A stretch of DNA of 48,614 nt, filler included, from Stramenopiles sp. TOSAG23-2 (lineage: Eukaryota), in assembly GCA_900128395.1 (NCBI GenBank). It is 2 parts of 2 records of this genome, joined end to end, with 100 filler letters (N's around TTAATTAATTAA, not from the genome) between each part and the next. Parts side by side here need not be neighbours in the genome. Positions count along the whole stretch, not along the records: positions 1 to 24,312 come from LT649468.1; 1 more part is not named here. One strand, given 5' to 3'. The position numbers and the translations under genes are program-made. A model generated the notes under the pieces. The model searched no databases. It saw only the letters and a list, made by a program, of their open reading frames with translations, and was not told the origin of the DNA. The stretch's first letter is position 1, and every line of letters begins with the position of its first letter. Below are positions 14,391 through 47,739 of this stretch, one piece after another.

Positions 14391-16862
14391 ATGACAACAT
14401 TCTATAAAAGTGAACGTCGTATTTTTGTAGCAATAATATTAGCAATAACAGTTAACTTTACTAATTTTTATTATGTCGAATCAGCTGTATTTTGGGATTT
14501 ACAAAGTGCAAACATTACAGGATATGAGGAAGAATCATTAGTATACACGCTTCAAGGATTGGTCAATAAAATAAATGAGCCACCTGAATTGTTTTATAAC
14601 ACTGGTGAAAAGAATATTGATTTTCCACAATCTGATGGTTTATGGGTTGATTATTTTAAAAAATATCGTAATATCACATTTGACAAGGACCCACCAAAAC
14701 CAATATTATGTGATTTAATTATAAAATACAAAAATAAGTTAGACGGGGCAGTATTATATAATAGTGATGGCTTCAGTATTTACCTAGCCATGACAATTGC
14801 TGGACTTGACAATTTATTACCTATATCTTTAAATTTAATAAAAAGCCATGATTGTCTTAATGAGTTAAAAGTTGTTCAAAAAGTGGAAAATTTTGCTGAT
14901 AAATTCGATGCTTACCGTTGGGCGATAACTAATTTGTTACCACGAACAAATTCAAACCTTGTATTTAATGCTGATTATTATCACAATGCAGTGCAATCAC
15001 AAGGCGCTGCAACTATAATGTCTGTTGATTACCCAATACAAAATAAAGCCTTTATAATGAATTTATGCCCACTTTGGAAATGCGACCCTATTGATTGTGG
15101 AAAAGGTGGTGGAAGAGTACCAACACCAAAAGAAACAGCGTTGTATGTAGAAATATTAGAATCAAAACCTGAATTAGTTAGTGTGTGGGGTTGGTCTGAT
15201 CCGGAACATGCATATACAAATATTACAGCTCATGCAGGTGGCGTCGTATTTTGCACTTTTTCGACACCCAACTTATCTTTTTGGAGAGCTATATCAATTT
15301 ATTTAAATACAAAGCCAATTAATCCCCCAAAACATGATTTGAATCGAAAATTAGATCACGATAAAGTCTACATCATGTTTGAAACAAATGAAGGGGATAC
15401 GCCGCGTATATTATCTTCCCAATTTACAGGAGCTTGGGTTTCAAATCATCGTGGTAAAATTCCAATGGGGTGGGCTGCAGATCCATATTTAGGGACTATA
15501 TTTCCAGAACTATGGAATTTTTATTCAAAAAATACAACTGTTAATGATACTTTCATCGATGGCGTTGATGGTGCCGGGTACATATTTCTTCATTCTTTGG
15601 GCAATCATGCCAAATCATATGAAACCAGGGCCGGAAAAGTCTTACAAGAAAGTGGTATTACCGTAGTCGATGTTGGAGTAGCCTCAAATAAATGGCCAGC
15701 AGCAACACAAAGTGAAATCGAAGAATATGTAAAGAATGCGCATGAAGGGAATGGTGGCGATCATACTAGTCCAGGAATGATATTAAATGCATGTGGTACT
15801 GCTTGGAATCAACCAATTAATTTCTGGTTAGGTGATGGAACTCCAGTAATCAATAGTGTATGTGTTGGCCCAAAAAATGATACCAGCAATGGGCATTACC
15901 TATATTATTATAGAAATTATTTAAATCAAACAGAACCGAAGAAAGATTTAGCAAGTAGAATTTCATGGGCTTCAAATCATTATAAGAAACCAAGCGAACC
16001 TTTGTTTTTACTAATATTCGGAAGTTTAGGAGTTTACGGTGGAAATTCAGATGTATTTACATTTTTGTCAGATGTTATAGATTCATTGGATGAAAATAAA
16101 TTTGAAGTTGTCGGTTCCTGGGAAATGAGTAGACTTGCAAGGGAGCTATATTATCAAAAAAACAACAAATCTGCTGGCCCAACCGATTTCATTAAAAATA
16201 TTGAAAATGCTATTGATGACATAGGAGAGGAATTATATCTAGGGTCTGGTTGTTATTGGGGTAGGCAATATGATTATGTACAAATTGAACTATCCTCATT
16301 TGGTAGGAAAAACTCTCAAGTGACAACAATTGGTGGATATATGTACGGTAACTCGACAAATAAAAATGCTTGTTATTATAATAAAAACGATGTATCTGTG
16401 TATAGTGAGGAAGGACATGCAGAAGTTGTGAAAATAAATGTACCAAAGCTCAAAATTGCTGATATCTTAAAAAAATATTTTGAATCATTCGTGCAAATAG
16501 ACACAAAAATTTGGGAACGTGAAGATTATTTTGACCTTGGGCCGGGCTATCGTGCATTAATTGGTATGAAAGGTGGTATGAAAAATAATTTTGTTATGAA
16601 TTTGATCAAGCAAGTCGATCCACATAATACAACGTTTAAAATTGGAAAAGGTTCTGATTCAGATACATTAGGAACAAACACTGTATATATTTATGATAGT
16701 GATAAATTTGAATTTCATCAGGCAGAATTGTGTTTACAATTTCACAATAATCAAACTGGTACTTATCCAAAGCAATACCATGATATAAAAACTATTTTAA
16801 CTTCGGATGGTAAATTAAAGAAAACGAATTGTCCGTTACCAGAAATTGTTGGTTGTAAATAA
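14391..16862 (+). CDS. Secreted GxGYxYP-family putative glycoside hydrolase fused to a C-terminal MsrA-like domain
   Basis: N-terminal signal peptide. TLQGLVN, AMTIAG, AYRWA, VWGW, NLSF, EGD, RGKIPMGW and GAGYIFL match the GxGYxYP family. LGSGCYWG...GGYMYG...GHAEVV...YRALIG...FHQAE..QFH matches the peptide methionine sulfoxide reductase fold (~16230-16800). Confidence 0.75.
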   Translation: MTTFYKSERRIFVAIILAITVNFTNFYYVESAVFWDLQSANITGYEEESLVYTLQGLVNKINEPPELFYNTGEKNIDFPQSDGLWVDYFKKYRNITFDKDPPKPILCDLIIKYKNKLDGAVLYNSDGFSIYLAMTIAGLDNLLPISLNLIKSHDCLNELKVVQKVENFADKFDAYRWAITNLLPRTNSNLVFNADYYHNAVQSQGAATIMSVDYPIQNKAFIMNLCPLWKCDPIDCGKGGGRVPTPKETALYVEILESKPELVSVWGWSDPEHAYTNITAHAGGVVFCTFSTPNLSFWRAISIYLNTKPINPPKHDLNRKLDHDKVYIMFETNEGDTPRILSSQFTGAWVSNHRGKIPMGWAADPYLGTIFPELWNFYSKNTTVNDTFIDGVDGAGYIFLHSLGNHAKSYETRAGKVLQESGITVVDVGVASNKWPAATQSEIEEYVKNAHEGNGGDHTSPGMILNACGTAWNQPINFWLGDGTPVINSVCVGPKNDTSNGHYLYYYRNYLNQTEPKKDLASRISWASNHYKKPSEPLFLLIFGSLGVYGGNSDVFTFLSDVIDSLDENKFEVVGSWEMSRLARELYYQKNNKSAGPTDFIKNIENAIDDIGEELYLGSGCYWGRQYDYVQIELSSFGRKNSQVTTIGGYMYGNSTNKNACYYNKNDVSVYSEEGHAEVVKINVPKLKIADILKKYFESFVQIDTKIWEREDYFDLGPGYRALIGMKGGMKNNFVMNLIKQVDPHNTTFKIGKGSDSDTLGTNTVYIYDSDKFEFHQAELCLQFHNNQTGTYPKQYHDIKTILTSDGKLKKTNCPLPEIVGCK

Positions 16863-17277: not shown

Positions 17278-20200
17278 TTAAAAATTGTTTTTCTCCCTTT
17301 GGCGAAGTATAGAATTGACTGCAGAATGTGTATCCAGGTAAAAATTTACTTTACCAATGATATCAATAGCACCACTCAATTTTAATTTATTATAGACTTT
17401 ACTGTTGATCTTGGATATTTTTACTGCAATCTTTTGCTTTTTCACCTGTTTTACTAGTCTCATTAAAACATGTATGGCAGTTGAATCTATCCATGCAACA
17501 CATGAAAAATCTAAAATAATACTATCAAATTTTTGTATCCCATCATCAATATTTTCAGTGCTATTATCGTGTAAATGTTTATTCACAACACGCTTTAATG
17601 TTTCGACATTGCCAAAAAATAATGGTGCTTCAAAACGTAAAATAATCATTTTCTTTAATAAGTGTATTTGAAACATTTTATCATCGATTGCCCTATAATC
17701 TGTACTATTTATAGCACGCCCAAGTAGTGCCGTATGTGGAACAGCACTTAAAGTTAAAAACAATATAACAGAAAGACCAACAGAAAGTAATAAGCCATTT
17801 GTTATTCCAAGTGTCAACGTCAATATGAATGCCAATGCTAACGATAGAAAATCTTTTTTTGAAAGATTCCAAAGAAATTTAAATTCATCAATATCAACTA
17901 AACCAGCAACTGCACAGATAATGATAATTGCAATTACAAATTTTGGTAAATATGCCAATGCTGGTGCAAATACAAATAACAATATTGTACATATTATTGA
18001 AGATAATAATAAGCTCATTTGGCTTTTAGCTCCGGCTTTATCACTTATAGCTGATCTACTAAATCCACCACCTGTTACATAGGCGGAGCATAATCCACCA
18101 ACAATATTTGATAGCCCAAGCGCAAATAATTCGTGATTGTCATTTAAAGTATTTTTCTTATTCTTCTGTTTTGTATAAGATGTGTAGAGTTTCACATTTG
18201 CGGAATGCTCAACAAAAATGACCACACTTAACAAAAAACAATTTACAATAGAGCGGAGGTAAACATCAATACCAATACTAGGAATAGCTGGTGTTGCAAA
18301 CTTTGGATGAAAAGGTCCAATCATAGCAATATTTGAACAGGCATAAAAACCTTCTTCAGTTCCAGTAGTTGCTTTATCACTACAATATGCTATTTCCGAA
18401 GTTGAAGCATTAATGTTTGTATCTACATGAGATGGTTTACCGGATGGGCACAAAATTTGGGTAGATAATTTATTTACAATATTTTCACGTTGTTCTTTCG
18501 GTAAAGTAATAAAATTGAGATTATCAGCAATATTTTCATTAATTGTAGCAGAGTAAAACCATTTCATATAATGCAAAACAGCCAAACGTTCTTTGCAAGT
18601 TTGTATCCCATTTCGTAACTTTTTCCCATTCCATAGTGCAAAAAATGTATAACTAGAAATTGGCCAAGCTTCTGGCGTATTTAAAACAGTCTGTGACATT
18701 AAAGACAATTTATCTTTTCCGTTGTTTTCCGTTGCATCAATTGCTGTTTGGACTGAAATTTTGTTTGGGATAATAGGATTATTTCCAACATCAAATATAG
18801 AAATACAATGCAATTTTCTATTTTTCACTTCAACATCCCCGGAAACTGCATATCCTATTGAAAATGGTGTTTTATCAACAAAATCTATAACACCCTGATT
18901 ATAGTTTGCTAAAGTAATGTCATTTCCATCTGTTTCTTTTCTCCCTGCATTCCAATTGACTGTTTTCCCAAAACCTATTGTCTCATGAAAATCAGTATCA
19001 AACAATGATAACGCTTCAGTAAATATTGATGTCGTTCCTGACCCATCCTTTCGCACAATCATTTTGATACCAACACTTGGTAATAAATGTGCTAGATTTG
19101 GATTTTCTCGTTGTATCGTATCATGATCCCACCTCGTAATATTGCGGCGAAATATACGTGCAATCGTTTTCGGGCGTAAAACTAATCTTGGAGTCTCTTT
19201 GCTTGTAGCCTTGTCAACAGATATTATATCAGGGAAAACGTTTGCAAATGCACATACAGAAGTAGCCATGGTCGGTATTAATATAATATCACCCTTGTTT
19301 GTCACATTGTATTTAATAAGCGAGGAATTTGATATTTTGACGTCTGTACCGGCAAAATCAACTTCGTTCTGAAGTATGCTACTAATTCCATCTCCACTAC
19401 CAGTAGCTTTGTACTCAATGTCTATAGTTGTACTATGTTGACATTTAAAAGATTGAATTGATTCTTGATATACATGATAAGGCAAAGATGCCCCTCTGCC
19501 TAGGGCTTTTGGTAAATTAATGTCTACGCTGTTGCTATTATTATCATTTCCGTTCGTAGTAAAAGGCACAAATTGGCATGCACTTGCACCAAACAAAATA
19601 CCGACAATCAATAAGATTACGATAGGGTGGCAAATCGAAAAGCAATTGGAGCATATTCTTTGGCTCTTTGTTTGCATATAATTTTTGTTTCCCTTTTTCA
19701 AAGGGCTAAACGATGATTGCTGTAGTTGCCCCTCCTCTATTTTATTGTTATCAACAGCTGCAACAGGAATAAATGATGATGATGAAGAAGAAGCTGTTGA
19801 TTCTACTGATGATGATTTTGACTTCATACGTGGTACTATTTTATTTGCATTTTTACAATATCTCAATGCCATGTAAAACAAAAATCCTATGAGGGAATAA
19901 AAGACGATTAACATATTTGTCTCTGGCAATTTTGTAATTATATTTGGCAGCGCACTCTGAATTGTTGTCCCTTTTTTTCCAGATGATATTCCAAATACAT
20001 GTTTGAGTTGGGAAAGAATAACAACTACAGCTGCCGCAGCTGAGAACCCTTTTAAAACAGGGCGTGACACTAAGGCAGTTGTGATCACACCAATTTGCAA
20101 AATTGCCAATAAAATTAAAACAAAACCTGTCAATATAGTCATTCCAAATACGTAAGTTGCCTTATCTTCTGAAGCAGCAGAATCGACTAGTAGTTCATCT

Positions 20201-21933
20201 ACCATTGCGCCTATTAATAACGCGGGAATACTCATTGGACCTACTGCAACTTTTTTTGAAGAACCAAACATACCGTATATCAACGCAGGAAAAATGACGG
20301 AATAACAACCATATTCAGGAGCAATTCCAATCAAGCTGCTATAGGCAATGCTTTGAGGTATACCAACCATTGATATAGCTAAAGAAGCATTGAAATCCGC
20401 TAATAAGTTTTTTTTGAAATCGTACTCCCAAATCCAGTAGAAAACACTGTTGTAATACACAGTACAACAAGAGTTTACACAAAGTTTGCAAATATCTATA
20501 AAAGTAACCCCTTCGTTAAAATTTGCTTCATTTATAACTTCACTAAATTTTCGTTCTTTGGTTGCCTTTTCTGATTGGTTTGTATTTACTACTATGTCGA
20601 CATCACTACTACTGTTATTATTGGAGAAGGAACTATCAGTACTATGATACCCACGTTCTAAAGTATTAACAATTTCTTGTTTCAATGCGGATAATGGACT
20701 ATTATTATTATTATTAGTGTTTTTTGTATTTTGCTTAAGTTTTTGTTCATATTTATTTTCTACATCAGTTTCTGTGTCGCTACTGTCTATCTTTCCACCA
20801 TCAATTTGCGTTTCCTCAACTTGACTTTCCTCAAAATTAGAGAAAAGCATTTTGTGTGTATTTAACAGTTGTAATAAGCCTTCACTCATTTCAGGATCTA
20901 ATTGTGAAACTTGAAGCGCGAATATTTTCAGCAAAGAGGCAAATGTATCAACTTTTACTTGCATAATTTCTAAATTTCGAGTCGTAATTTCCAAAAGTTC
21001 ACTATCATTCATTTTAATATCACCATATAGCTCTACCATATTACTGTTTGCACTAATTTCCTTGTTTTTTACATCATCGCCACCACCACCATTATTTTTA
21101 CCATCATCGCCACCATCAGAAGACGATATTGAACTCTTAATTATTAATGGATTAATAATTGGTGCAACTTTATCTGCTATTCCTTCACGCATTTCACTTT
21201 TTTCCGCCCCTGTCAACGATAAATCTAACGCACTCATAGCATTCTGTCCCACCCGTATTGCCATTAAAATGTTTTTCGTTGCATTCTTACTTGATTCCTT
21301 AATTTTTTTCCTTAAGTTCTTCGATAATATTGTCCGTTGTTCTGCTTCTTCTTTCTCCGTCTTCTTGGCACTAGAGCTATTCATTTTTTGAGTAGCATGA
21401 TCAACTTTTTCCATAAAATTGAGAAGAGTGTTTGTATCATTATTCTTGTCAAATTTCTTCAATATTTTATAAAATCCAGTATAATTTAATTCAACAAATG
21501 ATATTAAAATGGCACTCAAATGCATTGCATCAACTTGTTGTTTCCTATTTTTTGCAACTCTAGAAGAGGTCATTTGCCTATTAATTTCTTTTGATTTTTG
21601 ATCTGAAAAAGTAATTGTTTTGACTAGTTCATTATCAAGAATATGAAAAAAGTAACTTGAAAGTGCATCAACAGAAACTGTGTTGATATCCTTACCTGTT
21701 TTAACATTTCCATCTTTAACACCATAAAATGTGCTGATAAATGTCCATTTGTCTTCAAACAAACTATCCCGTAATTTATAGTTAACTTCTTCTTTTGTTG
21801 CCGTATTTGTTTTATCTTTTTTTTCTTTTGCTGTTGATATGAGAGATATTATTTTTTTTAAAGCATTGTATTGTAAATATTTCTTTGCCCATGGTTCATA
21901 TCGTTCTTCCCGAATCCGGTTTCCAAATTTCAT
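17278..21933 (-). CDS. SPX - SLC26/SulP anion transporter with an inserted PstS-like phosphate-binding domain - STAS
   Basis: SPX: MKFG, YNALKK, NYTGFYKILKKFDK (~21933-21400). SulP: IPQSIAYS, VGP, NHELFALGLSN, GGFSRSA. PstS-like: GASLP, TGSGDG, FAGTD, RKDGSGTT, SIGYA, WPISSYT (~19510-18450). STAS: LRFEAPLFFGN, IILDFSCVAWIDST (~17730-17290). Confidence 0.9.
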   Translation of the reverse strand: MKFGNRIREERYEPWAKKYLQYNALKKIISLISTAKEKKDKTNTATKEEVNYKLRDSLFEDKWTFISTFYGVKDGNVKTGKDINTVSVDALSSYFFHILDNELVKTITFSDQKSKEINRQMTSSRVAKNRKQQVDAMHLSAILISFVELNYTGFYKILKKFDKNNDTNTLLNFMEKVDHATQKMNSSSAKKTEKEEAEQRTILSKNLRKKIKESSKNATKNILMAIRVGQNAMSALDLSLTGAEKSEMREGIADKVAPIINPLIIKSSISSSDGGDDGKNNGGGGDDVKNKEISANSNMVELYGDIKMNDSELLEITTRNLEIMQVKVDTFASLLKIFALQVSQLDPEMSEGLLQLLNTHKMLFSNFEESQVEETQIDGGKIDSSDTETDVENKYEQKLKQNTKNTNNNNNSPLSALKQEIVNTLERGYHSTDSSFSNNNSSSDVDIVVNTNQSEKATKERKFSEVINEANFNEGVTFIDICKLCVNSCCTVYYNSVFYWIWEYDFKKNLLADFNASLAISMVGIPQSIAYSSLIGIAPEYGCYSVIFPALIYGMFGSSKKVAVGPMSIPALLIGAMVDELLVDSAASEDKATYVFGMTILTGFVLILLAILQIGVITTALVSRPVLKGFSAAAAVVVILSQLKHVFGISSGKKGTTIQSALPNIITKLPETNMLIVFYSLIGFLFYMALRYCKNANKIVPRMKSKSSSVESTASSSSSSFIPVAAVDNNKIEEGQLQQSSFSPLKKGNKNYMQTKSQRICSNCFSICHPIVILLIVGILFGASACQFVPFTTNGNDNNSNSVDINLPKALGRGASLPYHVYQESIQSFKCQHSTTIDIEYKATGSGDGISSILQNEVDFAGTDVKISNSSLIKYNVTNKGDIILIPTMATSVCAFANVFPDIISVDKATSKETPRLVLRPKTIARIFRRNITRWDHDTIQRENPNLAHLLPSVGIKMIVRKDGSGTTSIFTEALSLFDTDFHETIGFGKTVNWNAGRKETDGNDITLANYNQGVIDFVDKTPFSIGYAVSGDVEVKNRKLHCISIFDVGNNPIIPNKISVQTAIDATENNGKDKLSLMSQTVLNTPEAWPISSYTFFALWNGKKLRNGIQTCKERLAVLHYMKWFYSATINENIADNLNFITLPKEQRENIVNKLSTQILCPSGKPSHVDTNINASTSEIAYCSDKATTGTEEGFYACSNIAMIGPFHPKFATPAIPSIGIDVYLRSIVNCFLLSVVIFVEHSANVKLYTSYTKQKNKKNTLNDNHELFALGLSNIVGGLCSAYVTGGGFSRSAISDKAGAKSQMSLLLSSIICTILLFVFAPALAYLPKFVIAIIIICAVAGLVDIDEFKFLWNLSKKDFLSLALAFILTLTLGITNGLLLSVGLSVILFLTLSAVPHTALLGRAINSTDYRAIDDKMFQIHLLKKMIILRFEAPLFFGNVETLKRVVNKHLHDNSTENIDDGIQKFDSIILDFSCVAWIDSTAIHVLMRLVKQVKKQKIAVKISKINSKVYNKLKLSGAIDIIGKVNFYLDTHSAVNSILRQREKNNF

Positions 21934-22293: not shown

Positions 22294-24300
22294 TTAAAAA
22301 TTCATGAATATAAGAGAACTCCACAAACAAACAAAATAAATATAGCCAAAGAATACATTTGAACCGCGCAATCCCTTATCCGTTTTTTCGTTCACAGCAA
22401 TATTTTGTTTCGATGGGTTGCAATCACTACTTGGTGGTAATGACCATCCTTTTTCTTGATATGCCATACGGATAATTTCCATGTCAAGATCTGATTTCCC
22501 ACATGCTTTACATGCAATTTCAAATTGTTTATCAGCGGCAGCCTTGTCGTTTTTCTTGATTTGTAACTCCACTAAATATGACTCAGCAAGGCAAAAATTT
22601 GGAATTAATTGCAATGCTTTGTCATAATACATTTTTGATTTATCCAAATCACTTGATGCACGTTGTCGATATAATACACCTAAATCAGTATATACATAAC
22701 CTAAACATGTGGTATTACTCAAATGCGATGGAATCAACCAATCTGAACAAGATAAAGGTGAATTAGATGCGATGGACAAAAGCATTTGTTCCAACGTATT
22801 TGCATTACTTTCCGGTATCGCAGTAGTATCACCTTTGTATACCTTAACGGATGCTTTCATATACTCTGCTAACGTGGAACCACCTGCTTGGGAAATGGAA
22901 CTTGTTTTACGAGTATCAATACCATGTACACGAATTCTCTGTTTACCTTCCGAACATGCTTTACCAACATTACATGAGAAAAATCTGGTACCCATGGTTT
23001 CACATTTGAATGTAAAATTTCCGCTATTACCAACATCAGTTCGTTTTGCACTGATGGAGAAATCACAATCGATATAAGTTGGATAGCTGTATACCTCATG
23101 AACATCATGTTGAATATTTGTATTCGTCCAACTAATTTCAACTGTCTGACCAATTTCACAATGTACTAATGGCATCTCAGAAACATTGAACCATTTTGCA
23201 CCTGCTGGAACCATATAATCCCAATTAATAACCTGTTTACTTGTCTGCACTAATGCTTGAGAAGATGTACCACTGGAAGCTGTTGTTGGTGATGCAATTG
23301 TTGGCGATGCAGTAGTTGTTCCACAAAATTGTGTTTCTGGGGAGCTTGGACAGGCTGTACCTCCATTACTAGGCTGTGTCGATACGGTGTATGTTCTACT
23401 TTGTGAATTACTACTACATGTGGACCATGTTGACCATGAACCAGCACAATTTACAGGATTGCCAGTACAACTTTGTGATTCTGGTGATGATGGACATGCC
23501 GTACCACCATTACTAGGTTGTGTTGTTACCGTATATGTTCTACTTTGTGTACTGCTACTACAAGAAGACCAGGAGGACCATGAACCAGCACAATTTACAG
23601 CATCAGTACAGCTTTGTAATTCTGGTGATGATGGACATGCCGTACCACCATTACTTGGTTGTGTTGTTACCGTATATGTTCTGCTTTGTGTACTACCACT
23701 GCAGGTCGACCAAGATGACCATGAACCAGCACAATTTACAGGATCAGTACAACTTTGTGATTCTGGTGATGATGGACATGCCGTACCACCATTACTTTGT
23801 TGTGTTGTTACCGTATATGTTCTACTTTGTGTACTGCCACTGCAAGTCGACCAGGAGGACCATGAACCAGCACAATTTACAGGATCAGTACAACTTTGTG
23901 ATTCTGGTGATGATGGACATGCCGTACCACCATTACTTGGTTGTGTTGTTACCGTATATGTTCTACTTTGTGTACTACCACTGCAGGTCGACCAAGATGA
24001 CCATGAACCAGCGCAGTTTACAGCAGGAGCTGCAGCAGGCGCAGGGGCAGGGGCAGGACTTGGAGATGGCGATGGACTACCTTTACTACCAGGTAATTTT
24101 CTAGCTTTTGCTCTTAAATTCAATAACGTTCTATCATATTGATTATTCTTAGGTGCATTAGCTATTTTTTTCGTTTTTCCATTTGGTAATGTAATAGATA
24201 TTACTTTTGCTTTCAATTGCTGTGCATGTACAATCGATGAATATATGATGCATAGATTCAACAACAATATTTTTAATAATTTGCAATTCATATTTTTCAT
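22294..24300 (-). CDS. Secreted/surface protein: signal peptide, SP/AP linker, 5 thrombospondin type-1 repeats, phytocyanin/cupredoxin-like domain, TPR-like helices, C-terminal hydrophobic (GPI/TM) tail
   Basis: NCAGSWSSWSTCS...QSRTY...GGTACP x5; HDVHEV..Y.DCDF...GTRFFSCNVGKACSEG; YTDLGVLY...YYDKALQLIPN; terminal hydrophobic stretch FFGYIYFVCLWSSLIFMNF. Confidence 0.8.
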   Translation of the reverse strand: MKNMNCKLLKILLLNLCIIYSSIVHAQQLKAKVISITLPNGKTKKIANAPKNNQYDRTLLNLRAKARKLPGSKGSPSPSPSPAPAPAPAAAPAVNCAGSWSSWSTCSGSTQSRTYTVTTQPSNGGTACPSSPESQSCTDPVNCAGSWSSWSTCSGSTQSRTYTVTTQQSNGGTACPSSPESQSCTDPVNCAGSWSSWSTCSGSTQSRTYTVTTQPSNGGTACPSSPELQSCTDAVNCAGSWSSWSSCSSSTQSRTYTVTTQPSNGGTACPSSPESQSCTGNPVNCAGSWSTWSTCSSNSQSRTYTVSTQPSNGGTACPSSPETQFCGTTTASPTIASPTTASSGTSSQALVQTSKQVINWDYMVPAGAKWFNVSEMPLVHCEIGQTVEISWTNTNIQHDVHEVYSYPTYIDCDFSISAKRTDVGNSGNFTFKCETMGTRFFSCNVGKACSEGKQRIRVHGIDTRKTSSISQAGGSTLAEYMKASVKVYKGDTTAIPESNANTLEQMLLSIASNSPLSCSDWLIPSHLSNTTCLGYVYTDLGVLYRQRASSDLDKSKMYYDKALQLIPNFCLAESYLVELQIKKNDKAAADKQFEIACKACGKSDLDMEIIRMAYQEKGWSLPPSSDCNPSKQNIAVNEKTDKGLRGSNVFFGYIYFVCLWSSLIFMNF
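23328..24020. repeat. Coding tandem repeat, 5 x ~141 nt (TSP1 modules)
   Basis: gaaccagc(a/g)ca(a/g)tttacag recurs at 141-144 nt spacing with high nucleotide identity. Confidence 0.95.
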
Positions 24301-24616: not shown

Positions 24617-27600
24617 ATGTCTGATCCAACATTAAATCAAAAACGTGAATTGCCACATATCTACGACAAGGATTACCAAACAACCGTGCAAAATGCAAGG
24701 CAATTAATATGCACTGGCAAAGATTTGGAAAAGAAACAACGTAAATCGGGTATGTTTGGTGGTGGTAACTGGAAAACACGAAATTGTTGGGTACCATCTC
24801 AAGGTAAGTTTGGATTAAAAACATTTTTTTGGATTCATATGACCAAAAAACTTCGTGGAAACGAACAGATACGACGTGAACATTTAATGGAAGAAGCACG
24901 TAAAAAAGGCAATTATTTTGAATTTAAAGATATTACAGACATTGCACACGATGAGAAAAATCGTAAACAATTTATCATACACGATGTACATCATTCCGAT
25001 GCACGTTTTCGTTGTCCAAGTGAAAAAGAAGCAAAAGCATGGGTTGAAGGTTTAACATTAGCAATTAATGGTAAATTGCGTTATTTATTAGAATTTACTG
25101 GTGGTGATACAACAACAGAAATATCATTTAAAAAAGATGGTACAGAGATATGGGAAGAAGGTACAATTTGTGATTATTTATTTACACAACAACAAATTGA
25201 TAAAGGTTTGCCTGGTATTCACGTTGTTGCAATTTCCGATGGAATGGGAGAAACCGTATATCAAGAAGTGGATTTTGCATTGACGGAATATCATTTAAAA
25301 CGAGGTAAAAATAAAAATTTTGCACATGAACGTGTTGGTAAAGAAGTTGAATTATACCAAAAAATGAAAAAATTGAATCAAATGAATAAATTAAAAATCA
25401 AAGGTGTAGACGGTAAAGTGAAAAAAACCACCACTACGACGACGACGACGAAAACGACGACGAAAATGAATCTTCCACCACCACCAGCATTTGCACTACC
25501 ACCACCATCAGATGATGATACACCAATGAAACGTTTATTGGTAAAAGTGAAAAAAATTTTAGGTGAACAAAATGTTTTATTGGAAATAACACAAAAACGG
25601 GAACAAGCCTTAGCACGGAAGTTGAAAGACTTGCAAGATAAATTAAAGAAAAAAGATGGTGAACTGAAACGTTTAATTGAATTCCCACCAAAAACATTAA
25701 AACCAGATGAATTGAAATGGAGTATTAAAAATTTAAAAAAACAACGGGATAAATATCGTAAGCAATTGGATTTACAATATCGCCAAGCAAAATTACAACG
25801 GGAAGAAGCAGAGAAGGAAAAGAAAAAATTACAAGATCAAATTAACGAAGCACAAAAAGCTGGAAAACTTGATCCAACACCTGCACCTCAATTTAATTAT
25901 TATTTCACTATTCCACAACTTCCAATTAAATATGGAAAAGATCCAGAAATGAAGAAAGAGGAACCACCACCACCAGCATTTGCACCACCTGGATTGCCAC
26001 CACCACCCGTATTTAACAAAGCACCGCCACCGAAACGAACACCACCTCCAAGGAAACAGCCAGACAATCAAATTGCAGCTGCAATGAACTTGATGGCACC
26101 TGATACAGAAGAGGTAAAAACAAATGCAGACAATGCTGCTGAAATTGAAGCTTTGCGTAAAAAACTAGCGATTGAAACGAAAGAGCATGAAATATACGAA
26201 ACGAAAAGTAACCAGTTGGATGCACAATTAAGTGATAAGGACAAATCATTGATGGTAACAGAAAGAGAACGTGATCAATTATTGCAAGATCTAGAAAACG
26301 AACGGAAACGTAGGGCAGAATTAAGTGCTGCTTTATTAATGGCACGGGAAGCGAAAACATTAGAAGCAGATGCTGCTGCAAGAAAAGCTGCTGCGGAGAA
26401 AGAAAAAGAATTGCAAGAAAAAATGAATAAATTGAGTAAACAACGAAGTGAATTAAATATGCAATTAGCTTCGCAAATGGAAAAGGCAAATGCAGAAAAA
26501 TCTGCAACAGATTCTCGTTTAGCACAATCGCAAAAAGATCAAAAAGCAGCCATGCAAAAGTTTCAAGATGAACATGAAAAATTGGAAAAATTGGAAGGTG
26601 AACGTGCTCAATTAATCATCATTTTACAGCAAAAGAAAGATAATTGTAAAGATTTAGAAGGACGTATTGATGCTCTTCAAGCATCATTAGATTCTACTAA
26701 AACACAATCTGCTGCTGAAAAAGAAAAAGCGGAACAGGAAAAGCAAGAATTGCAAGCTAAATTATTATTAGCAAATGGCTCATTAGAAGATACCCAAGGA
26801 CGTTTAGCAAAATTGTTAGAAGAAGAAAAAGCTGCACACCAAAAGGATATTGAAGAGTCCAAGAAACGTGAAATGGAGTTGGAAAACAAGTTGAAATCAG
26901 AATATGCATATCACGAGCAAGCGGAAACGAAATTAAGTGAAAAAGACAAATCCTTGAAAAACACGGAAAAAGAACGTGATCAGTTTTTAAATGAACTAGA
27001 AGATGAAAGGAAAAAACGCCATGGATTGCAAGCAGAGCTGTTGATGGCACGAGAAGCTGTTAAAACGGAGTCAAGCGCAGCTGCAAAAAATGCAGCAGAA
27101 GAAAAAGAGAAAGAATTGCAAGTTGCCATTGCAGATTTAAACAAGCAACGAAACGAATTACAAATACGTTTGAAATTGGAGATTGAAACATTGCAAAATG
27201 AACAGAAAAGTACAAATGATCAATTAGCCCATACGCAGCAAGAGCAACAACAAGCAATGGAACAATTTCAAAATGAACATGAGAAATTAGCGAAAGTAGA
27301 AGCAGAGCGTGCACAATTATTAATTGTTATACAAAACAATAAATCGGATTGCAAAGAGTTAAAAGATCAAATTGATGATTTGCAAAGTAAAATTAAAAAC
27401 AAAGATTCCATATCAAAAAAAGAACATGATCAAAATGTCAAAGATGTAAAAGCATTGGAAAAGAAGTTGAAACTTGCTAACGATGCGCTTGAAAATACGC
27501 AAGGAGAATTGGCAAGATTATTAAAAGAAGAAAAAGCAGCGCATGAAAAAGATGCGGAAGAATTTAGAAAATACAAAGCAGACATGGAAGCACGTTTAGC

Positions 27601-30600
27601 AGAGGAGGAAAAGTTTCATACAAATGCAATCAACGAAAGGGAAAAACTTATAACAGAATTAGATGCTGAGAAACATGAACGGAATGACCTTGAAGTTCAA
27701 CTACGTGCTGCTAGAGAGATGCAAAAGCAATCCGATGCTGAATTAAGAAAAGCAGCAGAAGAGAAAGAAAAAGAATTGCAAAAGCAAATTAAAGAACTTG
27801 GTAAAAAACGCCTAAGTCTGAAAGAGCAATTAGAAAAAACCATGAAAGATCTGGATAATGAACGCAACATCGCAAATGAAACCATAGCAGCTGAGAGGGA
27901 TAGACAACGCCAACTCTTGGAGCAATATGAAGCAGAACATAGTAAATATGAAGTTACCGAGCATAAACGCGCTGCCCTGGAAGTAGAACTAGCTGCAAAC
28001 AAAAGCAATTGCAAATCACTTGAAGGTCGCATTGATGAGTTACAAAAAATACTGAATAATAAATCAAAGCAATCAAAACAAGAATTGAATGATGCTGCAA
28101 AGGAAAAAGAAGCACTGCAAGCGCAATTGTTAATGGCAAATTCAAACTTAAGTGATACAGAAGGACGTTTAGCAAAATTATTAGAAGAAGAAAAAGCAGC
28201 ACATCAAAAAGATATTGAAAATTTCAATGACAAAAAAGAGCAATTAGAACAACTAATTCAAGATGAGAAAAAAGAACAGGAAGTGTTAAAATCAGAGCTA
28301 CAAGATGCCAAAAACGATGTGGAGGCTAGCAAAAATAAGTCAAAAGAGCAACAACGTCTTGCCATGGAAAAACAAGCAGAGCTGGAATTAAAAATCAATG
28401 TCCAACATGGTTTAACAAATACGTTGAAAGATCAACTAGAAGCGTTGAAGGAGAAAGAAGCAAAGGAAGTTGCAATGGCCAATGAAAAGCAACGTTTATC
28501 AGAGCTTGAAATTCAACGTTTAAAAGATGAATTAGATCAATACAAACGCGACTTAGAAGCAGCAGAAAGTGAAGCGGAGATGACCTCCAATCAACTTGAC
28601 AAAGTAATGTCAGCTAATTCACAAAATGAAAAGCAGAAAAGTGCTGCAAGAGAAATGCATGCAAATGCAGAAAGACAGCGAAAGGAATTACACGATGCGC
28701 ACGAGGAACTACGACGCCAATTAGAATTTGAAAAAGAAAAACAAAAACAATTGGTGGATAAAGATGCTGCATTATTAAAAGCAGAACGTGAAAAACACGC
28801 AGAAGAGCAAAAACGTTTGAAACAAGAGCTAGCGTTGGAAAAAGAAAAAGAGGAAGAGATTGAACGTAAACGTGGTATATTGCAACGAAATTTAGATCAA
28901 GAGCGTGAGGAAAGTAAATTTTTAGCAGAGGAGTTAGAAAAATTAAAAAAGCAAATGCAAGATCAAGCAAATAAATCATCCGAGGAGATTGAAAAAGAAA
29001 AAGAGATGGAAAAAAATTTGCAAGACCAACTCCAACAAAGCAATCAAACAATCGATTTGATCCGTCAAGATCTTGAAAAGGCATTAAAGGAGGAAAAGAA
29101 AGCAAGAAGAGAAGAAAAAAAAAGAGCTGATATGAAAACGGCGGAATTGGAAGATCATTTGAAAAAAGGCGAGGAAATGCAACAAAATTTAACAGAGAAA
29201 ATTAAAAAGTTAGAGCAAAGCCTGAATGAAGAGCTGGACAATGAAAGACGCCTGGAGATGGGTAGAACCCAAGTAAAGCGACGTTTAGATAAGGAGCGTG
29301 GAGTTGTTGAGAAACTATTGCGCAAGATTGGGGAATTGAAAAATGAACGTTTGCATAACAAGGAAATGACGGATGAAATGAAACGTGATGCAAGGCGCAA
29401 AGAAGCAAATTTGAACAAAGAGCTAGCTGTCACGCAGGCTAAAGTTAAAGAAATTGAGGAAAATCTAAAGAAAGAACTTGAAATGGAACAAGGGGCGCAT
29501 AAAGAAGATTTGTTAAAATTAAAAGCAATTACCCAGAAGAAAGATGAAATTGAAACGCATCTGAATGATGAATTGTCTAACAATGCCGCATTGCAAGATG
29601 AACTAGAACGTTTAAAGAAAATGATGGCGGATAAAGAAGCAAAAAATACAAAAATTCACCAAGATGATAGAGATGAAATTGCACGATCGGAGGAACAATT
29701 GAAAAAATCAGACATCATGTTAAACGATATTCGCGACAAGCATAAGAAACAATTGGAGGAAGAAGAGGCAATGCACAGCAAAGCGCAATTAGCAATGGAA
29801 CAACGCAAAAAAGAATTGGAATCAAAATTAGAAGAGGAAAAGAAACGGGAAGCAGAATTAAATAATAATTTGAAACGTTTACGAAAAGACATAGACGATG
29901 GTAAAAAACGTGAAGATGACCTTGTCAATCAACGTAACGAAGTGGAAGGTTTACTGGAGGACAAAGAGAGTGAAAATACTGATTTAAAGGAACAGCTAAA
30001 ACGATTGCTAGAAAGCAATGAGAAAGGCAATAAATCCTCACAAGAAAGAGATGCAGAAATTAAGCGATTGCAAGCACGCATTGTACAAAGCGATAAAGAG
30101 ATGGATGCCGTGAAAGCGCGTTTGAGCAAGCAATTGCAAGATGAAAAAATAGCCCATAAAGCAGATGCCGACAAAGCCCAAGAAGAACAAAAATCGTTGC
30201 AAAAGAAATTGAGGGAAGAAGATGCTCGATGGAAACTTTTAAATGAAGGATTAAAATCCGAATTGGAGAATTTGGATCAAAAAGAAAAAGAGGAAAGACG
30301 GCTATTGGATTTAGCGATGGAGGAGCAAGGCCAATTGGAAACTCGGTTGGACGATGCCTCAAAACGATATGATCTTGTAACGTTAGATAATAAACAAAAA
30401 GAAGAAGAAATTGCAGAGCTAAAAAAGGAATTGCAAAAGTTAACGAAAAGTATTAACGATGCTCAAAATCAAGTATTAATGAAAGAAGATGATGTGAAAA
30501 AAGCAGATAAATTATACAAAGATGCAGAAGATGCAAAGAATCATCGTGAAGAAGAGTTACGCCAAATGGAAGAAGATTTCCGCAATAAAACATTAAATGC

Positions 30601-33600
30601 AGATGCAGATTTCGATGATTTAAATAAGCAACTTGAAGCGTTGAAGAAACAAATCAAAGAAAAAGAACAAGAAAAAGAAGCATTGAATAAGCAACTCGGA
30701 GACACTGAAGCGGAAAGGGAAAAGCTTGCAGTTGACAATAAAAATCTAGAAACCATGAAAGAAAAAGTCGAAGAGCAATTTAAGAATAGTACGGAAATAA
30801 ACGAAGTTTTAGAACAAGAAGTCAAAACTCAAAAGGAAGAAGTTGAAAATCAAAAAACTCAACTTGGTGAAAAAGACGATGAAATCGAAAATCAAAAAGC
30901 TCAACTTGGTGAAAAAGACGATGAAATCGAAGAGTTAAGAGATCAGCTTATGCAAATTGGGGGCAAAGTCAATGAGCATAAAGAGTCACATAGCAAATTA
31001 GCAAAACAACACGATGAGGAAAAAGCGAAATTGAAAAAAGACTTGAAGAAGGCAGAGCAAGAGCGTAAGTCACACGAAGCAAGTGCAAAGAAACATATGC
31101 AAGCTAAGGAATCATTGGAAAAAACGATGAAAGATTCAGAAAAGAAATTAAAAGAGTTAAAAGAACAACAAAAAAAATTAAAATCTGAAGCATCCAATGC
31201 ACAAAATCAAAGCAAACAGCATAAGCAAAAAGTAAATAATTTGCAGGAAGAACTTAAGAATGCGAAGGAAAGTAATAAAAATTTAAAAAATACTGTTGGA
31301 GAGAAAGACGATGAAATAAAAAAATTGAAAGAAAAAAGCCATGATGTAGACCATTTAGAAAATGAAATAAAACATTTGAAAGAGGAAAATGAAAGATTGA
31401 AAAATAGACCAATGCCAGAAGAAGAAGACGAAAACTTTAATAAGGTGACTACGCAACAAAAAAAATCAAAAAGTAAACCACCTGAGAATGATCGCCCACC
31501 AGCAAATGATGAGCAGATTGAAAAATTAAAAGTGGAATTAAAGGATAAAACAAAAGAACGTAGTAATTTATGTTGGTTATTAGCTTTGTTGATATTATTA
31601 ATAGCATTGTTATGTGGTAAAATATTTTTACTAGGAGATGACTCTAATAAACAAGAAGATGATGATCGATTCAACAAATTGCAAATCAAATATAATACGC
31701 AAGTGAAGCAATATAGTTTGTTGGAAACAGATATGAAAAATGCAAAATATCAACATGGACGTTTATTAACGGAGGCAAAAACGGCGGAAGAAAAATCCAA
31801 GCAAAATGCCCTTACGCAAACAAATTATTACAAGAAAGAAAAAGCTGCACATGCTACAAAAAAGACACGTATTACTGAATTGGAGAAAGAGATTGCTGCT
31901 TTGAAAAAAGAATTGAAAGCTATTAAATACAAAGAATCACAATTAGCTGCTGGTCAATCTGGTAATGAAAAGCAATTGACGAAGTTGCAAGATGAAATTA
32001 AACGTTTGAAAAAAGAAAAAAGTGACCTGTCTGATGAATTGAAGCAGTGCAACCGAAAGAAAAAGGAAGCACAATCTGAAGCAAAAGTAAGCAAAGCTGC
32101 ATTATCCACAGCAAAAGAAGAAATGGTAGCAAAAGTTAAGACAATTGAAGCTAAAGTTAAGACAATTGAAGCTCGTGATGCCGAAATTGTAGAATTGAAA
32201 AAGAAAATCAAAAATCTAGAATCATCGCTTGCTGCGGAGACAGCAGCAGTTGCAAAGTTGAAGCAAACAGCAAGTGCATCTTCATCTCAATTACAAAAAG
32301 ATGTAAATAAACGAGATGATGAAATTAAGAAATTAAAAGCACAAATTAAAACATTGCAAGCATCTGAGAAAGAATTAAAAACAACTATTGAAAACTTAAA
32401 GAATGAAGTTAAGAAATTAAAAGAAGATAGAAAACAAGCACAATATAGAATTGATGCTGCAAATGGTTTGGTAAAAGAGAAGGAAAATTCATTGCAAAAG
32501 CAAGTTAAAGCATACGATGCTTTGAATGCAAAAGCACAAACATTATCAGCCGAAAAAGATAAATTAACAAAAGACAAATATGATTTAGAGCAAAAATTAA
32601 AAAAAGTGGAATATAATTTATCAACAGCAAATGGTGAATTAAAAACATCAAAAGCAACTATTAATACACAAACAAAGAAAATTGCTACATTATCAGCCGA
32701 GAAAGATAAATTAACAAAAGACAAATATGATTTAGAGCAAAAATTAAAAAAAGTGGAATATAATTTATCAACAGCAAATGGTGAATTAAAAACATCAAAA
32801 GCAACTATTAATACGCAAACAAAGAAAATTGCTACATTATCAGCCGAGAAAGATAAATTAACAAAAGACAAATATGATTTAGAGCAAAAATTAAAAAAAG
32901 TGGAATATAATTTATCAACAGCAAATGGTGAATTAAAAACATCTAAAGCAACTATTGATACGCAAACGAAAGAAATTGCAAAGAAAAAACAAAAAATCAA
33001 AGAATTGTTAGATGAAATTGCTAAATTAAAGAATGTTGGTGGAAATGCAGATGGGCGAGTGAAACAATTGGAAAAAGATGTTGCTAACTTGAAAGCAAAA
33101 TTAGAAAAACAAGAAAAATCATATGAAACATTACAAAGTGCGAAGAATGTTGTAGATGTATCAGAGAAAAAATTGAAAACATCAACTTATAATTTAGAAC
33201 AAGAATTAAAGAAATTGAAATCTAAATTAGATACGACGGAACGTAATTTAAAGACATTAAAAACAAGCACTGATAAATCCATTGCAAATTTACAAACTCA
33301 AGTAAAAGATAAAGAAAGCGCTATTAATAAAGAGACAAAGGCGCATAAGAAAGATAATACGGAGAAAAATGAGGAAATTACTAAATTAACCAAAAAGTTA
33401 AAAGATAATAGCTATAAACAAGGTACTTCCAATAAAGATTATGAATATAAAATTACACAATTGAATAAAGAGATTGGTGTACTTGGTGGTAAAATCGATA
33501 AATTGCAAAAAGAAAATGAACAAATTGCAGCTTTAGATACCAAATTAAAAGCATCTCAAAGTGAATTAAACAAATTAACTAAACAACGTGATGAGGAACA

Positions 33601-41839: not shown

Positions 41840-43900
41840 CTATAATAGTTCTATCTGCATCCATTCCACTTGTTGATACCCGTTTGATCCATCTTTTTTA
41901 TATTGTTCTATAGCTTTTAATTGTGATTTCATATTAGAACTAAGTTGATTATTACGTAGGAACAATCTCTTTAATGTATTGTTTGTTTTTAATCCATCAA
42001 TAATACTTTGTATTCCACTATCATCAGTAATATTATTATTATCTAGGTACAATCTCGTTAATGTGTTGTTTGTTTTTAATCCTTCACCAATACTTTGTAC
42101 ATCAGTAATATTATTATAAGGTAGGTACAATACCTTTAATGTCTTGTTTGTTTTTAATATCACACCAATAGCTAATGCATCCATATCCGTGAGATTCTTT
42201 CCTTTATTGTTTGTTTTTAATCCTTCACCAATACTTTGTACATCAGTAATATTATTATAATCTAGGCCCAATCTCGTTAAATAATTTTTGTTTGTTTTTA
42301 ATCCTTCACCAATACTTTGTACATCAGTAATATTATTATTACCCAGGCGCAATATCGTTAATATATTGTTTGTTTTTAACAATTCACCAATAGCTATTGC
42401 ATCCTCATCCGTGAGATTCTTTCCACTCAAATCCACTTCCGTTTTACTACTATTCCAAAACGACCCAGTCCCATTAATTTTTTTGTCCCATTTAATATAT
42501 ACAGCACTTTTTTTCTTCAATTCATCAACATGTTCTTCTTTCAACTTTCCTACTATTTCAACATTATCTAAGAACGAATCAGTAGTCGTCGTTGCCGTTG
42601 TATCTTCTTCCCATTTAATATATACAGCACTTTTTTTCTTCAATTCATCAACATGTTCTTCTTTCAACTTTCCTACTATTTCAACATTATCTAAGAACGA
42701 ATCAGTAGTCGTCGTTGCCGTTGTATCTTCTGTATCTGTACCATTAATACGTTGTATTTCTTTCTCTTCTTCTTGTTTTATAGAAGATTTCACTGGATAT
42801 GCCGATACACCCATAGTTTGTTTTGTTGAATCAGGATAATCTGAATGATCAAATACTACTGTTGTTGCTATTGGTTTCTTTTTTTGCTTAACATTATTAT
42901 TTGTAATAATGCTCTTTATGTTTCTATCATTATTAACATAATTATCAATACCCCCATTCGGTTTCTTTTCATTATTCATATTGTTATTATTAATATTTTT
43001 GCTATCTATGACATTATTGTTATTGCTCTTAGTTTTCATATTTTCAATCTTATCATCATTATTAGCATCTCTTATCGGCACAACTAGTTCACGCCCTTCA
43101 TCTTCCTTTTTCAAACTCTCATCATCTTTAAATGTCGTATCTGTAATAGTACTATGAAAATAACCATCTTTCACAGGTTCATTTACAATTATTAAACAAT
43201 CTTTTGCACGTGTCATGGCACGATACAATGTCGTTTTATCTTTATTATGCTGCGTACGCAATTCATTAATTTTTACACCAAAACCAACCACAATAGCTAC
43301 ATCATATTCTAAACCATCTTGATTTGAAATGGTATCCACCACCATTTCCACTGATTTATGTTCTTCCAATTGTGGAAATTTTCCAAACATCTCCTCAGCA
43401 CTAAATAGTTCAAATTTAACGTTACTTTTGCTTTTTGCAATTATTGCATTTAATTTCCTTTGTAAACGGGTTTTGAAATCATCTTTTTTAAAATTAGTGT
43501 CATTACTAGGAATAATAATAGAAACACGATGATCTAAATCCACCAAAAATCCAAAATCATTTGCCTTTCGATTTTTTGCATATTTGATTGCCTCTATTGT
43601 TGCAAGAACATATGCATTTAAAATCGTATCATTTTTTTGAACATCCACCATAAACATTTTCACCGCTTCACCAAATGGTTTGGTTTTACATGTTGGTGTT
43701 TGCTCCGTGTGTTTAAATAGATGTGATGCTAAAGTAATTCGTTGCGTTGATCGTACGACATCATTTAATTCTATATTGTAAATATTTTCCATTGTTTGAT
43801 CGTCATCTTCTTCTTCCTCGGCAGCTGCTTCAGCTAATTTCTCTCTTATATTATTCATATTCGATGGATCTTGAGACGGATCTGTAAGTATCGACATCAT
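41840..43900 (-). CDS. C-terminal fragment of the S74-TIR-helicase-LRR gene: SF1 helicase C-terminal RecA domain plus RNI-like LRRs
   Basis: RSTQRI (motif IV-like), DTISNQDGLEYDVAIV (motif V), LYRAMTRAKDCLIIV (motif VI). LRRs LKTNNTLTRLYLDNNNITD at ~42440-41930. Confidence 0.85.
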   Translation of the reverse strand: MMSILTDPSQDPSNMNNIREKLAEAAAEEEEDDDQTMENIYNIELNDVVRSTQRITLASHLFKHTEQTPTCKTKPFGEAVKMFMVDVQKNDTILNAYVLATIEAIKYAKNRKANDFGFLVDLDHRVSIIIPSNDTNFKKDDFKTRLQRKLNAIIAKSKSNVKFELFSAEEMFGKFPQLEEHKSVEMVVDTISNQDGLEYDVAIVVGFGVKINELRTQHNKDKTTLYRAMTRAKDCLIIVNEPVKDGYFHSTITDTTFKDDESLKKEDEGRELVVPIRDANNDDKIENMKTKSNNNNVIDSKNINNNNMNNEKKPNGGIDNYVNNDRNIKSIITNNNVKQKKKPIATTVVFDHSDYPDSTKQTMGVSAYPVKSSIKQEEEKEIQRINGTDTEDTTATTTTDSFLDNVEIVGKLKEEHVDELKKKSAVYIKWEEDTTATTTTDSFLDNVEIVGKLKEEHVDELKKKSAVYIKWDKKINGTGSFWNSSKTEVDLSGKNLTDEDAIAIGELLKTNNILTILRLGNNNITDVQSIGEGLKTNKNYLTRLGLDYNNITDVQSIGEGLKTNNKGKNLTDMDALAIGVILKTNKTLKVLYLPYNNITDVQSIGEGLKTNNTLTRLYLDNNNITDDSGIQSIIDGLKTNNTLKRLFLRNNQLSSNMKSQLKAIEQYKKDGSNGYQQVEWMQIELL
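42487..42732. repeat. In-frame 123-nt tandem duplication in the helicase-LRR linker
   Basis: EDTTATTTTDSFLDNVEIVGKLKEEHVDELKKKSAVYIKW occurs twice; cccatttaatatat at 42487 and 42610. Confidence 0.93.
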
Positions 43901-44327
43901 TTAATTCTATATTGTAAATATTTTCCATTGTTTGATCGTCATCTTCGTCTTCCTCGGCAGCTGCTTCAGCTAATTTCTCTCTTATGTTTACATTCTCTGA
44001 ACGGTCAATTTCTGCCAATAATTCACTAATATCATCTTCTTCTTCCTCATTTAATTCTATATTGTAAATATTTTCCATTGTTTGATCGTCATCTTCTTCT
44101 TCCTCGGCAGCTGCTTCAGCTAATTTCTCTCTTATGTTTACATTCTCTGAACGGTCAATTTCTGCCAATAATTCACTAATATCATCTTCTTCTTCCTCAT
44201 TTAATTCTATATTGTAAATATTTTCCATTGTTTGATCGTCATCTTCTTCTTCCTCGGCAGCTGCTTCAGCTAATTTCTCTCTTATATTATTCATATTCGA
44301 TGGATCTTGAGACGGATCTGTAAGTAT
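43756..44327. repeat. Acidic tandem repeat block, 4 copies with periods 136, 150 and 150 nt; the 136-nt step frameshifts
   Basis: tcatttaattctatattg at 43761, 43897, 44047 and 44197, encoding IREKLAEAAAEEEEDDDQTMENIYNIELN. Confidence 0.93.
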
Positions 44328-47582: not shown

Positions 47583-47615
<33 letters not shown>

Positions 47616-47619: not shown

Positions 47620-47739
47620 GATTATACATATATATATATATTTCTCAAATAAAAAAATAGAATAGAATGAATATAAATGAATCAAGATGTATATATGATA
47701 TCATCTATTGATATTATATATATTATTAAGATTACCACA

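Follow-up and report, generated by a model that had tools for sequence, protein, structure and literature searches.

The subject of this report is a single gene in a 48,614-nucleotide stretch of the genome assembly of Stramenopiles sp. TOSAG23-2 (GCA_900128395.1), to which, at its full length, we refer as the window. Positions 17278..21933 hold, on the minus strand, one open reading frame (ORF) of 1551 amino acids plus stop, which runs from an SPX domain through transmembrane helices 1 to 7 (TM1-TM7) of an SLC26/SulP transporter, a PstS-type domain and TM8-TM14 to a C-terminal STAS domain, as defined by the ORF call, Pfam and NCBIfam. The gene is genuine, conserved, and belongs to an uncultured marine protist. 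With a confidence slightly better than even, we read its product as a phosphate importer of high affinity, made as a single chain under SPX regulation and equipped with a tethered capture domain, because the PstS domain, a serine of the type found in the rice phosphate transporter OsSPDT and the SPX domain converge on one polypeptide.

All four Pfam domains of the ORF, namely SPX, Sulfate_transp, PBP_like_2 and STAS, exceed their gathering cut-offs. Specifically, SPX scores 39.7 bits (cut-off 27.8), Sulfate_transp (PF00916) 227.2 bits (cut-off 23.2) in two separate stretches, the first of which (residues 510-699) corresponds to profile positions 1-188 of 380, PBP_like_2 66 bits over residues 811-1074, and STAS (PF01740) 61.1 bits over residues 1428-1538. 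In addition, the NCBIfam PstS model TIGR00975 matches residues 813-1154 with 173.9 bits (E 4.3e-51). The uninterrupted frame and the architecture of SPX, split Sulfate_transp, PstS-type insert and STAS had both been claimed in an earlier note on this DNA, and the ORF check and the Pfam and NCBIfam matches bear them out. All the motifs quoted there are also found in the ORF: YNALKK (residues 22-27) and KILKKFDK (156-163) in the SPX domain; IVILLIVGILFGAS (771-784) and IGPFHPKFATP (1205-1215) in the membrane domain; and GASLP (814-818), TGSGDG (844-849), FAGTD (860-864) and RKDGSGTT (961-968) in the insert. The insert size of about 350 residues, given in the same note, suits the PstS domain proper (about 363 residues, 806-1168) and does not describe the full gap between the end of TM7 and IGPFHP, which measures about 414 residues with the flanking linkers of roughly 15-20 and 35 residues, both modelled with low confidence.

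The public data leave the fusion in place. Twenty public runs from 12 studies, mostly marine metagenomes and including six RNA libraries, contain all or part of the stretch, and 3 of the 20 may themselves be the source of the window. The contigs of four of these runs, three of them RNA, were compared with the stretch. An independent metagenome contig (X4, record 29) matches 17386-20095 with 3 mismatches and covers both insert junctions; the C-terminal junction is crossed by RNA-library contigs X16 record 10 (17689-18711) and X19 polyA record 18 (18013-18406), and the N-terminal junction by X16 record 13 (19425-19665). In the three RNA runs no contig covers about 21176-21697, within the SPX part, and next to nothing is covered up to 21871, a gap from which no conclusion is drawn because missing contigs prove nothing. 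A protein of 1550 amino acids in the public data (P0002) is 99% identical to the ORF. A chimeric assembly, which had been named as a possible refutation, is ruled out by the independent metagenome contig, the bridging RNA-library contigs and the divergent relatives with the same arrangement. We accordingly give virtually no credence to an artefact of any kind, be it chimeric assembly or the read-through of separate genes, since both junctions are covered by these contigs and sixteen divergent relatives, at 26-42% identity, carry the insert in the same loop. As for natural variants, the transporter and PstS part shows 14 synonymous against 6 non-synonymous changes, and in the linker at residues 181-499 8 of 9 are non-synonymous; these counts, small and drawn from mixed strains, hint only weakly that the domain parts are under purifying selection.

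An architecture search had been proposed earlier, and the same architecture does recur in divergent proteins. A word-based search among proteins of similar length returned P0002-P0006, with the same four Pfam domains at 24-99% identity, four of them diverged fused proteins at 24-42%, together with SPX-SulP-STAS proteins lacking the insert. A HMMER scan of 1.84 billion representatives with residues 490-1551 as query, followed by a hidden Markov model of the PstS insert, yielded 16 non-redundant SulP+PstS proteins among 157 collected proteins. Every full-length member of this set also bears SPX, and 14 further SPX-SulP clusters are without the insert, all of them carrying the TM3 serine described below. 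Members are present in the EukProt and MMETSP gene sets. One has been annotated automatically as a phosphate ABC (ATP-binding cassette) transporter phosphate-binding protein, an assignment that masks the fusion architecture.

Trees were built with FastTree, and their branch supports are local SH-like values only. On the transporter tree, computed with the insert removed, 14 of the 16 PstS-bearing proteins share one supported group with the insert-less P0007, a protein with an N-terminally truncated gene model; P0006 and P0014 stand apart, near an unresolved base. On the PstS-domain tree, an analysis called for by the earlier note, the 16 inserts form one group, which a branch with support 99 divides from the 22 stand-alone PstS proteins and the four PstS repeats of P0017. 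The simplest reading of the two trees would be a single old insertion, followed by loss or by unresolved topology.

P0017 merits a description of its own. In this 2386-residue EukProt protein of Chromosphaera perkinsii, PstS-type domains stand four in a row, and three of the four keep every phosphate ligand; Ephrin_rec_like repeats and a TRP-like channel domain come after them. It would represent a second type of eukaryotic membrane protein that bears PstS domains on the outside, and it might act as a phosphate-gated channel or as a sensor.

The predicted phosphate-binding domain (residues 806-1168; 18430..19518, minus strand) was delimited by TIGR00975, alignment to E. coli PstS, Foldseek and residue tables. 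In HMMER comparisons the insert aligns with chain residues 5-320 of 321 of E. coli PstS (1ixh; E 1.8e-26), and its match to Yersinia PstS likewise spans the whole length (E about 1e-26). The phosphate ligands of the E. coli protein, which we take to be T10, F11 (through its backbone), S38, D56, R135 (paired with D137), S139, G140 and T141, were mapped onto the ORF through the alignment to 1ixh, and the corresponding positions are S816, L817, S846, D864, R961, D963, S965, G966 and T967. Two ligands differ, T10 being replaced by Ser and the main-chain ligand F11 by Leu; S38, D56, R135, D137, S139, G140 and T141 are identical, in keeping with the match to PstS ligand motifs noticed at the outset. 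This ligand set is kept in 14 of the 16 fused proteins. An AlphaFold2 model of residues 490-1551 (44-row alignment, mean predicted local distance difference test score (pLDDT) 84.5, predicted TM-score 0.70) was compared with solved structures by Foldseek. The insert superposes on E. coli PstS (1ixi, 2abh, 1quk, 9k3x) with TM-scores of 0.88-0.89 and root-mean-square deviations of 3.3-3.5 Å over about 360 columns. As modelled, therefore, the insert has the type II binding-protein fold of PstS, and the fold that had been proposed for it is confirmed by these scores as well as by the end-to-end alignment to 1ixh. Its stand-alone PstS relatives are distant: in the word-based search their identity does not exceed 35% over at least 55% of the query, and reaches up to 37% over half of it.

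The membrane part shows the hallmarks of SLC26/SulP, namely the Sulfate_transp match, a 7+7 TM fold of the UraA type and the STAS domain. The first repeat, TM1-TM7, occupies residues 500-790 (19564..20436, minus strand; Pfam, PDB alignments and AlphaFold2 helices) and the second, TM8-TM14, residues 1205-1400 (17734..18321, minus strand; PDB alignments and residue table), followed by STAS at residues 1401-1551 (17281..17733, minus strand), which was placed by the Pfam match and aligns with the STAS domain of AtSULTR4;1. The short strand and half-helix that TM3 and TM10 have in this fold are visible in the model as a strand at 75-77 followed by a helix at 79-92, and a strand at 798-800 followed by a helix at 802-810 (model numbering). 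The membrane and STAS parts compare with prestin and AtSULTR4;1 at target-normalised TM-scores of 0.64-0.67. The multiple alignment shows the PstS insert cleanly delimited, by the TM7 helix on one side and by the conserved VG-I-P motif that precedes TM8 on the other, and P0007, P0009 and P0010 lack it in the same alignment.

In the solved SLC26/SULTR structures the N-terminal domain and STAS are cytoplasmic, the 14 TM helices being divided into a core (TM1-4 and TM8-11) and a gate (TM5-7 and TM12-14), as set out in PMC12513419. Since a cytoplasmic N terminus precedes seven TM helices, the TM7-TM8 loop should lie outside, and the insert is predicted to face outwards while joining gate helix TM7 to core helix TM8. 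This agrees with the extracytoplasmic position previously suggested for it. The cysteines and glycosylation sequons point the same way. The fused proteins conserve five cysteines (831, 894, 1043, 1113 and 1162) that 21 of 22 stand-alone PstS proteins do not have, two of the five positions being common to the PstS repeats of P0017, and the insert contains five N-x-S/T sequons; both features fit an extracytoplasmic, disulfide-stabilised domain.

The domain is flanked by an N-terminal tether from TM7 (residues 791-805; 19519..19563, minus strand) and a C-terminal tether (residues 1169-1204; 18322..18429, minus strand), which comprises a short helix, two conserved cysteines (C1184 and C1199) and, at 1175, an N-glycosylation sequon. 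The PstS domain looks tethered in the model, not rigidly fixed, because pLDDT falls below 50 in the flanking segments on either side of it, at model residues 305-316 (protein residues 794-805) and 690-706. Such flexible tethers would suit capture and hand-off.

The same topology would also serve a phosphate salvage transporter of an endomembrane, such as that of the vacuole, the acidocalcisome or a food vacuole, with the PstS domain in the lumen and phosphate moving from lumen to cytosol under SPX control. A lumen is topologically outside, the cysteines and sequons fit it equally well, and the sequence features do not separate it from the cell surface. Moreover, several SPX-transporter fusions are vacuolar, yeast Pho91 and plant PHT5 among them, and among solved structures the C-terminal half matches the vacuolar AtSULTR4;1 best (E 1.4e-50). 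We nevertheless hold endomembrane salvage to be rather unlikely: no targeting information was found, and high-affinity capture would be most useful in dilute seawater.

Turning to the transport site, the phosphate ligands of OsSPDT are Y133, S170, E370, S413 and S415, with R416 as structural linchpin, and S170 is described as unique to the phosphate-related SULTR3;4 and SULTR3;3 clades, Ala being present in sulfate transporters (PMC12513419). In the HMMER alignment to the OsSPDT chain, Y531 (TM1) and S568 (TM3) of our protein align with Y133 and S170, S1292 and R1293 (TM10) with S415 and R416, and G1290 with S413, within a G1290-F-S1292-R1293 segment; E1242 (TM8) occupies the glutamate position of OsSPDT Glu370 and AtSULTR4;1 Glu347. 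At the S170 position AtSULTR4;1, prestin and SLC26A6 have Ala. After removal of ten near-duplicate rows, Ser was counted at this position in 12 of 12 PstS-bearing proteins in which the region is present and in 14 of 14 that bear SPX only; among plain SulP proteins the count is 14 of 125, with Ala in 105. Some of the plain SulP proteins with Ser group inside the SPX clade on the tree and may be N-terminally truncated models. The association appears to link SPX with an SPDT-like transport site. Among the PstS-bearing proteins, E1242 and R1293 are kept in 16 of 16, S1292 in 15 of 16, and both Y531 and S568 in the 12 that contain the region. Conservation of the TM8 glutamate suits proton coupling. 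The matches to OsSPDT itself (E 7e-20 and 1.5e-30 for the two halves) show no higher similarity than those to AtSULTR4;1 or prestin, which makes it probable that the OsSPDT-type serine arose by convergence or goes back to the ancestor of a separate clade.

P0006 and P0014 make up a subgroup of the fused family (subgroup C), and in P0006 the TM10 segment reads A-F-G-R instead of G-F-S-R. The anion that is bound or carried in this lineage may be another one.

At the opposite end of the protein, residues 1-180 (21394..21933, minus strand) match the solved SPX domains of rice SPX1 and SPX2 and of XPR1 in the PDB, in addition to the Pfam match and the alignment. Y22 and K26 are present in helix 1, and K156, K159, K160 and K163 in the KILKKFDK helix; together, Y22, K26 and the K-x-x-K-K-x-x-K pattern of helix 4 presumably form the inositol-pyrophosphate ligand surface. 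All 9 aligned relatives have the same residues at Y151, K156, K159, K160, D162 and K163. The binding clusters pointed out earlier are thus present, and the SPX domain keeps its basic ligand surface, for which ligand binding is predicted. Between SPX and TM1 lies a cytoplasmic linker of about 320 residues (181-499; 20437..21393, minus strand), delimited on the multiple alignment and mostly of low complexity, for which Pfam returned no family match. It includes a conserved helical block at about 315-365, with F331, P347 and F364 invariant in 9 of 9 relatives.

This long linker and its conserved helical segment could speak for a transceptor or sensor, in which the PstS domain would report external phosphate and the SLC26 body would pass the signal on to STAS, to SPX or to the linker while moving little phosphate in bulk, if any. 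Some weight is lent to such a role by P0017, in which PstS domains are joined to a membrane protein of another protist that is not a transporter, and the bacterial Pst system doubles as a phosphate sensor for PhoR (PMC11528361). However, the transport-site residues E1242, R1293, S1292, Y531 and S568 are kept, which fits an active carrier, though transceptors can keep such residues, and variants in the transporter and PstS part are mostly synonymous (14 versus 6). On balance a pure sensor seems to us improbable.

Several observations weigh against the reading as a phosphate importer. The TIGR00975 score lies below the equivalog cut-off of 205 and the domain is internal to a SulP transporter, so the insert, homologous to PstS and probably working like it, is nonetheless not an equivalog of the PstS of an ABC system (PstSCAB). 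The sulP model TIGR00815 scores 329.6, below its cut-off of 380.45, on a domain split by the insert. Phosphate binding may not be universal across the fused family because two members are changed at ligand positions, P0006 with D56 to Gly and T141 to Met, and P0021 with S38 to Thr and D137 to Asn. Ser and SPX co-occur largely in one clade, and the 26 of 26 count for Ser does not stand for 26 independent events because the association is clade-structured. The OsSPDT S413 position is Gly in 15 of 16 PstS-bearing proteins. PstS normally depends on an ABC motor to let go of the phosphate that it binds so tightly, and here there is none, the carrier cycle being the sole source of energy for the release. 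The RNA-library contigs bridging the junctions, from which expression of the gene is likely, are not proof of transcription. Finally, S170 is reported in PMC12513419 as necessary yet not sufficient for phosphate selectivity.

These points about the transport site bear directly on whether the carrier moves another anion, such as sulfate, bicarbonate, chloride or a phosphate analogue, while being gated by external phosphate through the PstS domain and by internal status through SPX. It would amount to cross-talk between sulfur and phosphorus or between carbon and phosphorus. The membrane domain is indeed closest in sequence to sulfate transporters and prestin, the S413 ligand is not kept, and the equivalent of Ser170 alone does not confer phosphate selectivity (PMC12513419). 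Yet three independent phosphate features, namely a PstS domain with the D56 position, SPX and the SPDT-type serine, occur in one chain, and the long low-confidence tethers suit substrate delivery over the transmission of force. We therefore consider a carrier for another anion a quite unlikely option.

Returning to the phosphate importer, we infer the phosphate substrate, the high affinity, the hand-off, the direction of import, the plasma-membrane location and the sign of SPX control from the features set out above. The computational predictions behind the earlier proposal of a phosphate uptake or sensing device, namely PstS fold and ligands, placement between TM7 and TM8, a non-chimeric gene and a basic SPX surface, were all borne out, and the OsSPDT-type serine adds support on which that proposal did not draw. 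By analogy with its solved relatives the transporter is probably a proton-coupled, dimeric elevator of the SLC26/SulP type. The tethered PstS domain would capture orthophosphate from dilute seawater and pass it to the outward-open transporter site, in a hand-off akin to that of soluble binding proteins feeding TRAP or TTT carriers, or of fused domains feeding some ABC importers. The elevator would then move phosphate inward, and SPX, perhaps with STAS, would tune activity to the cytosolic phosphate status.

A bolder version, which we put forward only tentatively and with clearly less than even confidence, joins these elements into the first eukaryotic binding-protein-dependent secondary transporter, built as a single chain. 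With the clamshell wired between gate helix TM7 and core helix TM8, the elevator stroke could be coupled to its opening and to the release of phosphate into the carrier, giving an ABC-like affinity without ATP, and SPX would act as a brake that senses cytosolic inositol pyrophosphate. On this proposal the family could be a main high-affinity phosphate route in some abundant uncultured marine protists.

The architecture combines elements known from separate systems. SPX-bearing phosphate transporters include SPX-EXS (XPR1/PHO1), SPX-SLC13 (Pho87/90/91) and SPX-MFS (PHT5/VPT) proteins, in which, as in our protein, SPX stands at the N terminus of a membrane transporter and keeps its basic surface; the carrier here is instead SLC26/SulP and bears an extracellular binding domain, which none of those has. 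Binding-protein-dependent systems comprise TRAP and TTT transporters and ABC importers with fused binding domains, for instance GlnPQ and OpuA. In these too a Venus-flytrap domain feeds a membrane carrier, and the TRAP carrier is also of the elevator type. In contrast, the binding domain studied here sits inside a eukaryotic carrier, between its two inverted repeats, and has no sequence relation to DctP, DctQ or DctM, those other systems being prokaryotic. The Pfam scan of the ORF shows only SPX, Sulfate_transp, PBP_like_2/PBP_like and STAS, which places the resemblance to TRAP and TTT at the level of functional analogy and not of membership.

With E. coli PstS of the PstSCAB system (1ixh, 2abh, 9k3s) the insert shares full-length homology, fold and ligands, including D56 and the R135-D137 pair. 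That protein, however, is free in the periplasm and serves an ATPase, whereas the insert is an internal domain of a secondary transporter and has five conserved cysteines that are rare in stand-alone PstS (21 of 22 are without them). OsSPDT (rice SULTR3;4; PMC12513419) has the SLC26 fold and STAS and the same residues at Y133, S170, E370, S415 and R416; unlike our protein it has neither SPX nor a binding-protein insert, and its S413 is Gly here. We found no description of an SPX-SulP or SulP-PstS fusion in full-text literature whose coverage excludes most subscription journals, and within that literature the view that the fusion is undescribed was upheld. The passages on PstS available there concern only stand-alone eukaryotic PstS-like genes or bacterial PstS. 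The modules themselves are known; what is apparently new is their arrangement and, plausibly, the way in which they operate together.

To our knowledge, there is only a poor understanding of the means by which small eukaryotes of the sea hold their own against bacteria where phosphate is nanomolar, and the carriers of marine eukaryotes that we know of (PHO84-type, PHO89/PTB-type and PHO4-type) are without a capture domain. PstS capture, an SPDT-like SLC26 carrier and an SPX sensor would together be a compact and experimentally tractable answer to this competition. The protein would also offer a natural test of whether a covalently tethered binding protein can feed an elevator carrier, and its gene could become a marker for phosphorus stress in ocean metatranscriptomes. 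In addition, since the 14 insert-less SPX-SulP clusters all carry the serine, the sequences suggest that the SPX-SulP clade is an unrecognised eukaryotic phosphate-transporter family.

The DNA has about 32% G+C and long uninterrupted ORFs, and next to the gene it encodes ordinary eukaryotic cellular proteins, namely GKRP, a full ABC-B transporter, an EF-hand K+ channel, KAS, GST, and TSP1-repeat, leucine-rich repeat (LRR) and TIR proteins. A few of these and other ORFs of the window deserve mention. At 14391-16862 (plus strand) an 823-residue ORF shows an unusual pairing of GxGYxYP glycoside-hydrolase-like domains with a C-terminal PMSR (peptide methionine sulfoxide reductase) domain. The product of 22294-24300 (minus strand) is apparently secreted and combines five near-identical TSP1 (spondin-like) repeats with a cysteine-rich C-terminal part without a family match. 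The ORF at 24617-34102 (plus strand), 3161 residues long, lies in a region where the two strands differ extremely in composition (AT skew about 0.4, GC skew about 0.2), and its Pfam matches are only sub-threshold and of the coiled-coil type. On the minus strand, an LRR ORF at 41840-43900 overlaps by 50 bases the upstream ORF at 43851-45032, which encodes a ResIII/AAA/NB-ARC-like NTPase; the two (41840-45032) may be one NLR-like gene with an intron or a frameshift. Adjoining this pair, a minus-strand ORF at 45298-47685 carries a TIR domain together with Peptidase_S74, an endosialidase chaperone.

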